Source: a virus. Taken from it: a DNA stretch of 64,000 bases. The stretch lies in the IMG/VR virus record IMGVR_UViG_3300027904_000006; one strand, 5' to 3'. The notes beneath the pieces are model-generated. The model did no database searches and was not told the DNA's origin. It was given only the letters and a program-made list of their open reading frames with translations. The translations under genes were made by a program, and so were the position numbers. Shown in pieces: positions 13,557 through 17,527 of this stretch; the stretch's first letter is position 1; each line of letters begins with the position of its first letter.

Positions 13557-14789
13557 TTATTTGCCTCCCATGTATTCTTTATCGTATTGCGCGGCCAGTT
13601 CGGGGTTGTCCTCGAAAGCCTTGATAAGCGCCTGGGCCGTGGTCATCGCCGCGTTGTTCTTCTTAACGTCGGCTACAGCCATATTGACTCTGTCGTTGAT
13701 GTCACCGCTGCCGCTTGTGTTCTTGCCGAATTCCTTAAACAGCCCGCTTTTCTCGACCGTTGCCAAATGCTCGTCAAGCAGCGCCACATAGTCGTCGTAA
13801 GCCGTGCCTCCGGCTTTCTTGAGGTCATACAGCTTCGCGGCCAGCTCGTCGGATTTCTTGCCGATAATCTCGTATTTCTTCGCGAACCCGGTAAGCTGCT
13901 CCATTTCGACGCGCTTCCTGAGCGTTTCCAGTTCGTCTTTTTGCTTCGCGATTTCAGCCGCCTGCGCCTTTTTGATTTCCTCGAATTCGGCCAGGGCTTT
14001 CTTCACGTCCGGATGGATATCCGGCACGGCGGCGGGAGCAGGCGCGAACCCAATCGGGTTGGCAGGATCGTTTTTCAGGCCGTACCTCTTTTCAAAGTCG
14101 GCCAACTGCGCCTGTTCTTCCGGTGTCATCTTGCTTTTGTCAAACTTCATATCCATTTCCTCCTTTGGCGGGATATCAATCCCCTTATCAACGGGCTTGG
14201 ACACGACCGTATCACCGGTCGGGTTCGGCCCGGTTGTATCGTTCTTAGGAATACCGCTGTCGTTCGCCGAATTAGCGGGATTATCTGCCGGATTAGCAGA
14301 ATCGAACCCGATCGGGTTCACGATCGTGTCGGCGGTTAGTCCCTTCCAGAACGCTTCAAACGCTGTCTGGGTCTTGGCGTTCGGCCCCTTGGGGACAATC
14401 GTCCCCTTCTTGCTGATGTCTTTTTCAAGGCATTTGCCGACGCACCAGCCCGGCACGGAGGCCCTAATCGTTTCCGCAAACTCGTCGAACGATTTAAACA
14501 TCATGTCGCGCTTTGCCGTTTCGTCTAAATCCTCGTCAAAAAGGATTGACGCCAGGCTATCCGAGAACATGTAGGTGAAGTCGAACATTTCACGCGCGAC
14601 TTTATGAAGTATCTCCATTTGAACGCCGTCATTGAACGTCATGGCGTCCTTTGCCACGCCGCCATTATCCTTTTTGTCCCGCTTAAACAGCCGGACATGA
14701 GCCAGCGGGTTGGCCCCGTTGTCTACCAGGTCTACGCTGGTCAGTTTCAGGTTTTTAAGCTTGTTCGCCAGATTTGTCACCCCTTTCAT
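13557..14789 (-). CDS. Scaffold / prohead maturation protein
   Basis: N-terminal LKNLKLTSVDLVDNGANP..VRLFK; charged coiled-coil C-terminus ending FKEFGK. Confidence 0.7.
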   Translation of the reverse strand: MKGVTNLANKLKNLKLTSVDLVDNGANPLAHVRLFKRDKKDNGGVAKDAMTFNDGVQMEILHKVAREMFDFTYMFSDSLASILFDEDLDETAKRDMMFKSFDEFAETIRASVPGWCVGKCLEKDISKKGTIVPKGPNAKTQTAFEAFWKGLTADTIVNPIGFDSANPADNPANSANDSGIPKNDTTGPNPTGDTVVSKPVDKGIDIPPKEEMDMKFDKSKMTPEEQAQLADFEKRYGLKNDPANPIGFAPAPAAVPDIHPDVKKALAEFEEIKKAQAAEIAKQKDELETLRKRVEMEQLTGFAKKYEIIGKKSDELAAKLYDLKKAGGTAYDDYVALLDEHLATVEKSGLFKEFGKNTSGSGDINDRVNMAVADVKKNNAAMTTAQALIKAFEDNPELAAQYDKEYMGGK

Positions 14790-14795
14790 AGTGCG

Positions 14796-15011
14796 TTACG
14801 GCGCGGTAATCGTGACGGTCTTCTCGCCAGATACCCCACTGCCGTCGTTAGCGGTAGCGACAACCTTTACAGAACCTACAGCGACCGACGTAACTAGGCC
14901 GGTATCGTCAACCGTCGCGTCGCCGTCGATTTGCACGATAGACCACGTTACGCTGGGGTCTGTCGCGTCAGACGGCGCTACATCCGCCGTGTATTGGGCT
15001 TGGTTTGCCAT
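14796..15011 (-). CDS. Ig-like (Big_2) domain lacking its first beta-strand
   Basis: QYTADVAPSDATDPSVTWSI...ATVDDTGLVTSVAVGSVKVVATANDGSGVSGEKTVTIT; own RBS TAAGGATG. Confidence 0.8.
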   Translation of the reverse strand: MANQAQYTADVAPSDATDPSVTWSIVQIDGDATVDDTGLVTSVAVGSVKVVATANDGSGVSGEKTVTITAP

Positions 15012-15026
15012 ACGGACACATCCTTA

Positions 15027-15242
15027 TCAGTTTTTGTATATTTCATTGGCGCCATTAACCGAAATCGACTGGACTGGGTTTGGTTTCTTTTCTTGAATAA
15101 TAAGCAGGCTGGTATACCATAAGCCTGATATCTTCACACGTTTGACTGATACATTTTCAATCAATGTTTCCCAATATTTAGCAAGCACTCTATCCCCCCA
15201 CAGTATAAAAAACCTTAAATCAGGTGTTATTGTCATCATCAA
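15027..15242 (-). CDS. Small protein ending in an Ig first strand (PVQSISVNG)
   Basis: 71 aa; in frame with the 14796-15011 ORF but separated from it by TGA TAA. Confidence 0.55.
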   Translation of the reverse strand: MMMTITPDLRFFILWGDRVLAKYWETLIENVSVKRVKISGLWYTSLLIIQEKKPNPVQSISVNGANEIYKN

Positions 15243-15504
15243 TGCCGTCGCCTATTTCCATGAGCGCCCTCGCCGCGCCGTCTGGGCTTGCGGACAGGCC
15301 GCCGTCATAGCGTTTCAACATGGCCTGCAAAACAAGCATGTGGTTTGCCTCGTCCTGCTGGATTTCCTGAATGGCGTAGATATCGGCTGAGGAAAGGTCT
15401 TCGCATACATAAAGCATTTCTTCATAGTCCTGCCGCGCTTTGGCCTCGCCTTTAAGCTGCTTCAGGATAGCGGAAGCCGTCCCATGGCTTATTTTACCGT
15501 TCAT
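15220..15504 (-). CDS. Small helical protein, possibly ferritin-like (ExxH)
   Basis: GEAKARQDYEE...EIQQDEANHMLVL; ATG at 15504. Confidence 0.5.
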   Translation of the reverse strand: MNGKISHGTASAILKQLKGEAKARQDYEEMLYVCEDLSSADIYAIQEIQQDEANHMLVLQAMLKRYDGGLSASPDGAARALMEIGDGIDDDNNT

Positions 15505-15537
15505 AAAATGCCCTCGATTCAAAATAAAAACACCTCA

Positions 15538-15606
15538 ACACAATCGTGTTCACAACCGCGTCCACATGGAACGCGATTGTGGACACGATTGTGAACACGA
15601 TTGTGT
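15538..15606. repeat. Cluster of five 12-bp ACACGATTGTG-type motifs in inverted arrangement
   Basis: Copies at 15538 and 15550 (reverse strand) and at 15571, 15583, 15595 (forward); intergenic. Confidence 0.85.
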
Positions 15607-15644
15607 TGTCAGGTGCCTTTTTGTGGTTTACGCTGGCCCGGGTA

Positions 15645-15920
15645 TTATGTTGTCAGACTGTCAGCGCCGTTAACTGTGATTGACTGTACGGGAGTAGGCG
15701 GTACGGTGATCGTGATTGTTTTTTCGCCGGATACCCCGCTGCCGTCGTTAGCCGTCGCGACAACTTTTACTGAGCCTACAGCGACCGCGGTAACTAAACC
15801 GGATTGGTCAACTGTCGCGTCGCCGTCGATTTTTACGATTGACCATGTTACGCTGGGGTCTGTCGCGTTTGACGGCTGTACATCCACTGTGTATTGGGCT
15901 TGGTTTGCCAATATAAGCAC
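15645..15920 (-). CDS. Ig-like (Big_2) domain lacking strand A, with a C-terminal extra strand A (PVQSITVNG)
   Basis: Close paralog of 14796-15011 plus the tail PPTPVQSITVNGADSLTT. Confidence 0.8.
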   Translation of the reverse strand: MLILANQAQYTVDVQPSNATDPSVTWSIVKIDGDATVDQSGLVTAVAVGSVKVVATANDGSGVSGEKTITITVPPTPVQSITVNGADSLTT

Positions 15921-15936
15921 ATCCTTATATAAAATT

Positions 15937-15956
15937 TAAAGCCCTTGCGGGCTTTA
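15937..15956 (-). terminator. Hairpin overlapping the stop of the collagen-like gene
   Basis: Minus-strand AAAGCCC-GCAA-GGGCTTT followed by an A/U-rich tract. Confidence 0.55.
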
Positions 15957-16403
15957 TTGCAAATTAATTACATCCGGGCCGCTAACTGTAATTGAGTTTA
16001 CGGTAGTAAATTGCGCCGGGGATGGGTTAGGCCAGAAGTAGATATTATTCTCGTTTCCCGGCAATAGGCTCCAGGCTATCGCGGTGGCTTTGTCGGGCGC
16101 CTCAACCAGAAGCACGGATTGGCCGTTCTGTCCAGGGGGGCCTTGTATTCCGGGCGCGCCATCCTGGCCGGGCGTACCGGGCGCGCCGTCTTTGCCGGGT
16201 TGGCCGTCTTGACCCGGAGGCCCTTGTATCCCAGGTTGTCCGTTCTGCCCGTTCTGCCCCGGAGGGCCTTGCTGGCCGGGAGGCCCCTGCTGGCCGGGAG
16301 GCCCTGGTTGTCCTGGCGGCCCGGGCGGCCCTTGTATCGCGCCCTGGCCCAAGGCTACGCTGTTCGTGTAGCTTTTCGCAAGGGCAAGCGTTATAACGTC
16401 CAT
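15954..16403 (-). CDS. Collagen-like (Gly-X-Y) head fibre protein ending in an Ig first strand
   Basis: [14 protein letters not shown]-terminus; GPPGQ/GQNG/GAPG triplets; C-terminus [17 protein letters not shown]. Confidence 0.8.
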
Positions 16404-16416
16404 CTAATCATCCCTT

Positions 16417-16911
16417 TCATAGCTGCGGTATGCCAAGGGCCGCCAGGCTTATCCACGGCTTTAACGTCCCGTTTGCGAACATGGTCTGATAATCGGCGAA
16501 CGTCAGCGCGGTTGTGGTGTTATCGAAAATGCTTATCCCCAAATACCCAGTACCGGCAGGGAAATTCGATATATAGCCATTTGGTATTTCGCCGATATTA
16601 TGAAAAAAGACCTGGCTGTTATTGAATGTCCGCAAGATGAACCTAAAACTGTCCCTTGGCCCGTTTGCGTTAAAATATAAGCGCATATCTGGGATTTTCC
16701 AAAGGTTTATCAGCCTTATCCTCGAAACGAATACGCCTTTGTCGCCGCCAGTGCCGTAATGCCCGCTTTCCCAGTCGTTTATGTTGGTGGATATCAGATT
16801 GGACGGCGGCGTCTCGTATACTATTTTCCCCCTGATAGCCGCGCCGCCTAATTCTTTCCCCCGCGCGACCGCGCCCTGGTTTTCCAGTACAGCCCCGTTT
16901 TGAACCATCAT
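16417..16911 (-). CDS. Hypothetical beta-rich virion/fibre-associated protein
   Basis: 164 aa; NLISTNINDWESG, RIRLINL, YLGISI. Confidence 0.55.
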   Translation of the reverse strand: MMVQNGAVLENQGAVARGKELGGAAIRGKIVYETPPSNLISTNINDWESGHYGTGGDKGVFVSRIRLINLWKIPDMRLYFNANGPRDSFRFILRTFNNSQVFFHNIGEIPNGYISNFPAGTGYLGISIFDNTTTALTFADYQTMFANGTLKPWISLAALGIPQL

Positions 16912-16928
16912 ATGGTTGGTTGGCCCCC

Positions 16929-17120
16929 TTACTGCAAGATCCAGGTCTGCGTTTCGCCGTCAAACATGTACAAAGCTTTCGTGTCCATCTCGTAAAAGAT
17001 AGAGCCGTTCCTGTTGGGTGGCAGTATAGGCTTAATATCGCTTGACTTGCCCATGTATTCTTCAACTACGGTAGTGAACACGCCAAACCTGCGCCAATCG
17101 GCTTTAATCAAACTAAACAC
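16929..17120 (-). CDS. Small conserved phage protein
   Basis: 63 aa; KP...NGSIFYEMDTKALYMFDGETQTW. Confidence 0.65.
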   Translation of the reverse strand: MFSLIKADWRRFGVFTTVVEEYMGKSSDIKPILPPNRNGSIFYEMDTKALYMFDGETQTWILQ

Positions 17121-17131
17121 CCTATCACCCC

Positions 17132-17527
17132 TTAACCGGATTCGGCCGGTATACGGTCGCCCGTGCCTTCAATGGAGAACATCGTATAATCCCCGTCCTT
17201 TATTTTCTGCCAGACATCGTCGTCTGTTATCTGGAAGCCAAGCCACCAGCCTTCCGGCAATATCCCGTCCGGTATGCCCATTGCGGCGGCCTTTTCCTTG
17301 GTAAAGACCGCGCTTTCGATTAACTCCCCGACGCCGCCGCGCTCGTGCATTTCGCCAGCAATGGCGTAATCCTTTGCGAAAGCGTATGCGGCTTTTTCGA
17401 GTTCGTCTATTTCGATAATGTCCTCCTGCCAATCAACAACTGTCCCACCGTCAACCCGCGCGGCCACGGAGGCCCAGCCGAACACCTGGCGTTTGTCGTC
17501 GTCGGACTTAATCACTTTGAAACTCAA
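17132..17527 (-). CDS. XkdF-like putative prohead protease domain protein
   Basis: KSDDDKRQVFGWASV, DWQEDII, GEMHE, ESAVFT, WWLGFQITDDDVWQKIKDGDYTMFSIEG. Confidence 0.85.
   Translation of the reverse strand: MSFKVIKSDDDKRQVFGWASVAARVDGGTVVDWQEDIIEIDELEKAAYAFAKDYAIAGEMHERGGVGELIESAVFTKEKAAAMGIPDGILPEGWWLGFQITDDDVWQKIKDGDYTMFSIEGTGDRIPAESG

Follow-up and report, generated by a model that had tools for sequence, protein, structure and literature searches.

Split Big_2 domains in adjacent phage genes: candidate two-chain immunoglobulin-like joints of a modular fiber

What becomes of an immunoglobulin-like (Ig-like) domain when its first strands end one gene and its remaining strands begin the next? 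The question is raised by a cassette on the minus strand of a 64,000-nucleotide (nt) stretch of virus DNA, IMG/VR record IMGVR_UViG_3300027904_000006, the whole of which we call the window. Two short genes in this cassette, Ig1 and Ig2, encode Big_2 domains that lack strands A and A′, and peptides resembling strand A are encoded at the ends of the open reading frames (ORFs) upstream of them. We consider it probable, if well short of certain, that the products form two-chain composite Ig domains, in the order collagen-like trimer, Ig1, and Ig2, and in this way build a fiber from separate polypeptides by fold complementation. The genes concerned are the following.

15954..16403, minus strand: collagen-like protein, 149 amino acids (aa), with a GXY region, a non-collagen region of ~37 aa, and a C-terminal strand-A segment (plug) at ~15957-16004.
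15645..15911, minus strand: Ig1, 88 aa, TTG start; Big_2 domain without strands A/A′ (socket), with a C-terminal plug, PVQSITVNGADSLTT, at 15648-15692.
15027..15188, minus strand: ORF of 53 aa from GTG 15188 (71 aa from TTG 15242), AT-rich, in which only a C-terminal plug, PVQSISVNGANEIYKN, at 15030-15077 is recognizable.
14796..15011, minus strand: Ig2, 71 aa, ATG start; Big_2 domain without strands A/A′ and without a plug.

Both Ig ORFs matched Big_2 (PF02368) above its gathering score (44.4 and 40.0 bits; cutoff, 22.8 bits), and in both the domain is incomplete, with only profile positions 18 to 73 of 79 matched. Because both matches start at position 18, the first strands are truly missing from Ig1 and Ig2. 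The two proteins are 87% identical, and their PHROG matches are generic Ig-domain families. The C-terminal end of Ig1 reads ...PTPVQSITVNGADSLTT; Ig2, which consists of a socket only, is a candidate cap. The collagen-like protein matched Pfam Collagen (PF01391) with 64 bits (cutoff, 27.2 bits) over residues 24 to 80. By inspection, no signal peptide or lipobox was seen in the proteins, and the reading frame of each acceptor opens at strand B with a start codon of its own. Products identical to those of Ig1, Ig2, and the small ORF have been recorded for several contigs of 64,788 to 64,834 nt (JGI, ENA, and Logan), so the gene structure is unlikely to be an artifact of a single assembly. A recoded genetic code was ruled out, since the long ORFs are open under table 11.

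The upstream tails were evaluated with a position-specific scoring matrix (PSSM) for strand A, comprising nine columns and derived from 39 intact Big_2 domains of other loci, with the window left out. Among the 92,963 positions of a six-frame scan of the window, the Ig1 tail ranked first, the tail of the 53-aa ORF second, and the collagen tail fifth. The tails of two metagenomic relatives, L002 and L003 (see below), were likewise the top matches in their own sequences. Each motif in the window lies 6 to 7 residues before a stop (6 to 8 when L002 and L003 are included). Compared with intact tandem domains, tail and acceptor together make up a whole domain, with no overlap and a gap of at most ~3 residues: tail plus ANQ-AQYTVDV aligns to SITVTG-AANATAITTHDGT-LQMSADV and is ~3 residues shorter. 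This alignment locates the cut in the A′-B turn. The profile start and the PSSM ranks bear out the claim, made in an initial annotation of this DNA, that strand A is absent from the Ig ORFs and encoded at the ends of the ORFs before them, and they support the view that the tails are genuine strand-A peptides, encoded immediately upstream of strand-A-less domains. At the level of sequence, C-terminal extensions carry the strands that the acceptors lack (profile positions 1 to 17), which is the arrangement of a composite joint of the type formed by BppU and BppA of phage Tuc2009.

The signals that separate the genes are compact and lie in three elements.

15918..15927, minus strand: TAAGGATGTG, Shine-Dalgarno sequence and spacer of Ig1.
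15017..15026, minus strand: TAAGGATGTG, Shine-Dalgarno sequence and spacer of Ig2, overlapping the second of the tandem stops TGA TAA.
15937..15956, minus strand: hairpin UAAAGCCC-GCAA-GGGCUUUA, followed by AAUUUUAU; it includes the collagen stop codon.

At junction 1, the collagen-like ORF ends with TAA at 15954-15956, and a second in-frame TAA follows at 15936-15938. At junction 2, the ORF at 15027-15242 ends with the tail PVQSISVNGANEIYKN, which is followed by the tandem stops TGA TAA at 15024-15029 and by the Ig2 ATG at 15011. The ORFs, stops, shared TAAGGATGTG, and common reading frame were therefore located where the initial annotation had placed them, with one correction: Ig1 most likely starts not at GTG 15920 but at TTG 15911, which gives MANQAQYT with AAGGA 10 nt upstream. 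AAGGA lies 9 to 10 nt upstream of the start in each Ig gene, the Ig1 TTG and the Ig2 ATG occupy equivalent positions, and both products begin MANQAQYT; this start of Ig1 resembles those of Ig2 and the relatives. TTG starts and similar Shine-Dalgarno motifs are common across this phage. The hairpin at junction 1, where the 81-nt junction folds with a z score of -2.3, has the look of a weak terminator or RNA-stability element, and junction 2 has no hairpin (z score, +0.6).

A DNA repeat of 212 nt with 85% identity starts exactly at TAAGGATGTG. Since the repeat boundary lies at this point, junction and domain were duplicated as one unit, and the two junctions, which had initially been counted as independent, are not; independent support comes from L002 and L003 instead. 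These were obtained in a metagenome scan, L002 as a 121-kb contig and L003 as a 1.2-kb relative of it. The first Ig gene of L002 reads MANQAQYTAVV...SIVIKVTDITIEGDDIVELEP (its tail can also be written ...KVTDITIEGDDIVELEP) and then stops; 25 nt after this stop, the ATG of MANQSQYTATV...TIVEAL follows in another frame, and after it a terminator. The two proteins are 61% and 54% identical to Ig1. Between L002 and L003, the coding flanks differ by ~12%, while the 25-nt spacer is identical and the stop has changed from TAA to TGA and is still a stop. Homologs had been proposed as a check on whether the split is kept; L002 and L003 keep it, out of frame and with stop and spacer conserved, which supports conservation of the cut in a distant relative at 54 to 61% identity. 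The homologous junction in L002 is not in frame, so that the reading frame common to both sides of the window junctions is probably a coincidence.

Selection on the split genes was estimated from the ratio of nonsynonymous to synonymous substitution rates (dN/dS). This ratio was 0.15 for Ig1 versus Ig2 (dS, 0.53) and 0.11 for the first Ig genes of L002 and L003. For the tails, the L002-L003 comparison gave 3 synonymous changes and 1 nonsynonymous change, and the Ig1 plug and the small-ORF plug differ by 7 synonymous and 2 nonsynonymous changes in ten codons. According to these ratios, selection keeps the acceptors as coding sequence; the counts for the tails agree but are small.

Among 352 Big_2 matches in 146 fetched loci, a start at strand B that stands behind stops and has a start codon was found only in these genes, and the remaining matches in those loci are intact tandem arrays or obvious frame errors. 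None of the fetched loci contained an ORF with collagen (GXY) repeats, which leaves no fused collagen-Ig form among them. A tblastn search of the phage collection with Ig1 gave nothing at 1e-5, and a whole-library profile search returned giant tandem-Ig proteins only, with no short split forms. No close relative emerged when IMG/VR was scanned with Ig1, with the 164-aa protein, or with the scaffold protein encoded nearby, a distant DNA search of the phage collection gave a single weak match, at the XkdF gene, and the IMG/VR capsid match (L147) starts inside the capsid gene. With the collagen C-terminal region as query, only proteins of the window itself were recovered. Two metagenomic proteins of ~85 aa (P0007 and P0009), which start MA(T/A)I(T/A)TNKGTYQVK... 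and end ...NQKI(P/L)V(T/M)(G/S)IILT, may represent a second kind of split, with the cut between strands A and A′. In L003, the second Ig gene has a 63-nt in-frame deletion at ~890-900 relative to L002 6318-6380, which removes strands B and C; either genuine variation or the assembly of the 1.2-kb contig accounts for it.

The structural side was modeled with AlphaFold2 as a single readthrough chain of the collagen C terminus, a 16-residue linker, and Ig1, with a 40-row alignment. SITVS of the collagen tail was modeled as strand A with a predicted local distance difference test score (pLDDT) of ~90, beside a B-to-G sandwich at 95 to 98; the linker scored 63, and Ig1's own tail was unstructured. 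The model indicates compatibility only. To that extent it agrees with the initial assignment of the collagen tail as an anchor strand, since AlphaFold2 accepts it as strand A of Ig1 in this alignment-biased chain. Modeled alone, Ig1 reached a pLDDT of 93 as a fold of strands B to G, with the tail extended and not folded back; the B strand lost its assignment as a strand. The PDB entries that the model matched best were T5 pb6 (5ngj; E value, 1e-7; 33% identity), a DT57C baseplate chain, the phi29 capsid, and lambda gpV. As judged from the geometry of the Ig fold, strand G should end at the opposite end of the domain from the start of strand A; given a G-to-A linker of 0 to 5 residues, a tail should therefore be unable to fill its own socket. 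It would reach only a neighbor, head to tail, as in a covalent tandem array. Circular permutation in cis was ruled out by the extended tail in the AlphaFold2 model and by L002, which has no linker.

We propose the following scheme for the assembly of composite domains. Each Big_2 domain would be cut in the turn between strands A′ and B, and Ig1 and Ig2 would be made from their own start codons without strands A/A′, with an N terminus of ANQAQYT after removal of Met. For the missing strands, each acceptor would depend on the preceding gene, whose product would donate its C-terminal tail in trans: the collagen-like trimer would plug into Ig1, the Ig1 tail would plug into Ig2 or another Ig1, and Ig2, which has no tail, would terminate the chain. 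The product would have the geometry of a covalent collagen-Ig-Ig fiber, but nicked within each domain. The gene structure, its conservation, purifying selection, the strand-A identity of the tails, and structural compatibility are established by the results above, and to these we add, as inference, binding in trans, the order and stoichiometry of the subunits, and the location of the fiber on the virion.

Several observations weigh against this scheme. The first socket of L002 has no dedicated plug upstream, and the exact split form occurs in only two lineages. In the window, 0.6 kb of inserted DNA and a strong hairpin stand between the Ig1 plug and Ig2. The rows of the AlphaFold2 alignment are intact domains, so that the docking of strand A is partly built in, and AlphaFold2 used YKDVLIL, from the non-coding linker, as strand A′. 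Since Ig1 alone reached its score without strand A, the model is silent on whether the socket needs filling.

On one rival explanation, the Ig proteins that lack strand A are stable by themselves and serve independently in decoration or adhesion, and the tails are leftover linkers with another role or none, so that no complementation in trans occurs. We regard this as unlikely. The confident model of Ig1 on its own and the absence of a plug upstream of the first Ig gene of L002 fit it, and the doubtful 53-aa ORF suggests that some tails are recombination debris. Against it, the tails are under purifying selection and outrank other strand-A matches in their genomes. All stop at one and the same point of the fold, three of the four are directly followed by a socket gene, and together with an acceptor they restore full domain length.

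A second possibility is a special case of the composite-domain scheme, in which Ig1, as both socket and plug, polymerizes spontaneously in the infected cell; instead of a fiber of three defined parts, the product would be an open-ended filament like a pilus, with the three tails of the collagen-like trimer as its nucleus and Ig2 as its cap. Ig1 carries socket and plug in both lineages, the only plug available to the Ig1 socket of L002 is Ig1's own, and the socket-only Ig2 fits a cap. Self-filling should be blocked by the short or absent G-to-A linker, to judge by Ig-fold geometry, and the tail is not folded back in the AlphaFold2 model. On the other side, 4 of the 9 differences between Ig1 and Ig2 fall in the socket-lining strands B and G, which could mean that each plug has one cognate socket. 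This version is doubtful in our judgment; if it were true, the virus particle would carry a donor-strand polymer that needs neither chaperone nor protease and whose length is set by the Ig1:Ig2 ratio.

It is very unlikely that the pieces are what remains of a formerly continuous collagen-Ig-Ig gene in decay. The fragments do sum to intact domains, a foreign gene is inserted between Ig1 and Ig2, and the second Ig gene of L003 carries the in-frame deletion described above. Decay is contradicted by dN/dS values of 0.11 to 0.15, by the conservation of starts, stops, and spacer across lineages, by the lack of frameshifts and internal stops, and by the same gene structure in several assemblies. The initial annotation had also argued against random decay; its conclusion holds on the grounds of dN/dS and the conserved cut, and the breakpoint that it counted twice belongs to one duplicated unit.

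Least probable of all is a fused protein that would arise by readthrough of the stop codons or by a translational bypass (hopping) of the T4 gene 60 kind, which had been listed initially only as an alternative. In its favor, the reading frame is shared across both window junctions, and the codons for take-off and landing match as in gene 60 (CAA|TAA...CAA, 57 nt apart, at junction 1 and AAC|TGA...AAC, 27 nt apart, at junction 2), which could be chance, at ~1% in a rough post hoc estimate. The junction 1 hairpin starts at the stop codon, and a Shine-Dalgarno-like element precedes the landing site. Against it, there are two stops per junction (in tandem at junction 2), and junction 2 lacks a hairpin. 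The L002/L003 junction is out of frame and offers no landing codon that matches in the required frame. Each of the four genes has kept a Shine-Dalgarno sequence and a start of its own, and hopping would delete ANQ and shorten an already short A′-B turn.

The cassette lies within a morphogenesis region whose minus-strand order begins with a portal-sized ORF, a 565-aa ORF, an XkdF-type protease (17132-17527), a 63-aa ORF, and a 164-aa ORF. The order continues with the collagen-like protein, Ig1, a 100-aa gene, the small ORF, and Ig2, and 3′ of Ig2 come a 410-aa scaffold-like protein, a 140-aa protein, and a capsid-sized 348-aa ORF (75% identical to an IMG/VR contig). Four further features mark the edges of the cassette and the gap between Ig1 and Ig2.

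16408..16422, minus strand: left copy of the 15-nt direct repeat CTATGAAAGGGRTGA, which holds the stop of the 164-aa gene.
14777..14791, minus strand: right copy of CTATGAAAGGGRTGA; it lies where the scaffold-like gene begins and holds the ATG of that gene.
15536..15608, minus strand: 31-nt inverted repeat (94% complementary) of three tandem 12-nt units, ACRCGATTGTGN (-65.7 kcal/mol; z score, -9.2).
15220..15522, minus strand: 100-aa gene between Ig1 and Ig2 (Ferritin_2; E value, 0.033, below the cutoff for acceptance).

The two copies of CTATGAAAGGGRTGA stand 1,631 nt apart on either side of the collagen-to-Ig2 block, which suggests that the block was inserted as a cassette at an ATGA-coupled (overlapping) gene junction. 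Human-gut phage MT835491.1 (locus L148, 16400-24584) is the closest relative that the phage collection offers for the head module. It has portal, MuF, XkdF, a gap of 178 nt, scaffold, decoration protein, and capsid protein, and no gene of the region 14796-17120; its 319-aa ORF between portal and XkdF matches the 565-aa ORF in position. Since just 178 nt separate XkdF from the scaffold gene in that phage, the 2.3-kb block of the 63-aa, 164-aa, collagen, and Ig genes (14796-17120) is accessory.

Within the gap between Ig1 and Ig2, the insertion comprises the hairpin of -65.7 kcal/mol, the 100-aa gene, and AT-rich DNA. The inverted repeat marks the start of the insertion, and a T-run and the 100-aa gene's ribosome-binding site come after it. 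It may serve as a strong terminator behind Ig1 or as an operator with multiple sites. The 100-aa gene looks like a later insertion (a moron) that parts the Ig1 plug from Ig2 and lies outside the fiber.

The small ORF at 15027-15242 had been taken to encode a second, 71-aa anchor. It ends ...PNPVQSISVNGANEIYKN, and its Ig-like appearance is confined to the last ~18 residues; its GC content is 0.35, compared with ~0.53 in its neighbors, one gene caller takes 53 aa from GTG 15188, and a homolog search found nothing beyond the window's own proteins. As a gene it is doubtful. In favor of the anchor stands the predominance of synonymous changes between its tail and that of Ig1.

Nor does the label "head fiber" rest on more than gene position: the block is absent from MT835491.1, and the L002 homologs stand among tail-fiber-like genes, where the Ig pair comes after genes with Phage_fiber_2 and Phage_tail_C matches. 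Given these neighbors, "fiber" is reasonable and "head" is unsupported. Taken as a whole, the initial interpretation is partly supported: separate, selected genes and strand-A tails stand; the independence of the junctions is wrong, the head location is unsupported, and the 71-aa anchor is doubtful.

Around the Ig pair of L002 (1200-5885 and 6614-9353), we observed at least three fiber-like genes that have in common an N-terminal ...FKR(F/Y)A...(A/T)DY/F... motif (ORFs of 722 and 310 aa and, more loosely, 170 aa); the 170- and 310-aa ORFs also have a common C-terminal ...Y(D/N)LI..M.T..H(Y/F) motif, and a ParA/ParB-like pair on the opposite strand interrupts the series. The L002 contig is at least 121 kb long, and a near-identical protein is found on a 201-kb contig. 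The 63- and 164-aa ORFs of the window (16417-17120, minus strand) matched no family. The ESM Atlas did not assign the 164-aa protein clearly to a family either, and its low-confidence model of that protein weakly resembles beta-sandwich domains of the PKD or FN3 type. The 63-aa ORF ends ...LYMFDGETQTW, and a loosely similar motif (e.g., ...HYIYDGFAAIDL) occurs ~90 residues into the N-terminal regions of the L002 fiber-like proteins.

How does the proposed joint compare with known systems? In chaperone-usher pili (Fim, Pap, and Caf1), the C-terminal G strand of the subunit is missing, an N-terminal extension serves as the donor, and assembly depends on a periplasmic chaperone together with an usher. 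Common to the logic of those pili and of the proposed joint are an incomplete Ig-like fold completed by the next subunit's strand and a cap or terminator subunit; the difference is that the strands missing here are the N-terminal A/A′ and the donor is C-terminal. The analogy with these pili drawn initially therefore holds for the logic of strand completion but is loose, and type V pili and Tuc2009 are closer. In the type V pili of Bacteroidia (FimA and Mfa1), C-terminal donor strands fill the vacancy of a removed N-terminal strand, the vacancy arises by gingipain cleavage of a lipoprotein precursor at the cell surface, and tip subunits have no donor strands (PMC13655056). Sequence logic and the AlphaFold2 model would be compatible here with a C-terminal donor strand that fills the N-terminal vacancy of a neighbor. 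The type V vacancy is made by a protease in a transthyretin-like fold, whereas here it is encoded by the gene in a Big_2 domain without signal peptide or lipobox. Among pili, type V would appear to be the nearest in logic.

Among phage proteins, a crystal structure shows the C-terminal hairpin of Tuc2009 BppU completing the beta-sheet of BppA domain 2 to give a titin-like composite domain (PMC4742702). There, as proposed here, a C-terminal extension of one phage structural protein completes the incomplete beta-sandwich of another. The Tuc2009 plug is a 25-residue beta-hairpin, and its socket is the C-terminal domain of a 286-aa carbohydrate-binding protein; in the window, the plug would be Big_2 strands A/A′, the socket nearly the whole of a 71- to 88-aa protein, and one subunit would carry both. 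Our literature search found no paper on this joining principle for phage fibers; one solved example exists, Tuc2009. The Ig-like C-terminal domains of T5 pb6 and lambda gpV and the BIG2 domain of the phi29 capsid have the same fold but are intact and covalently part of a structural protein.

Fraser et al. reportedly noted in 2006 that Ig-like domains are sometimes added by programmed frameshift; a frameshift fusion was ruled out here, as the Ig genes have their own Shine-Dalgarno sequence and start. A phage gene split into adjacent ORFs whose products reassemble noncovalently is said to be known in nrdA of Aeromonas phage Aeh1, where a homing endonuclease gene caused the split. That case concerns an enzyme and an endonuclease-caused split, whereas no endonuclease was seen here and the split recurs as a module. 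Particular to the present case are the cut after A/A′, the minimal single-domain subunits, the subunit with both plug and socket, the plug-less cap, and the collagen-like anchor.

If the joints are real, subunits of 71 to 88 residues would be about the smallest natural plug-and-socket system known, and their small size would make them easy to test and potentially useful as protein connectors. For the phages themselves, real joints would mean that fibers can be built and reshuffled from very small, separately encoded Ig beads, a route to the modular exchange of surface domains without recombination inside genes.

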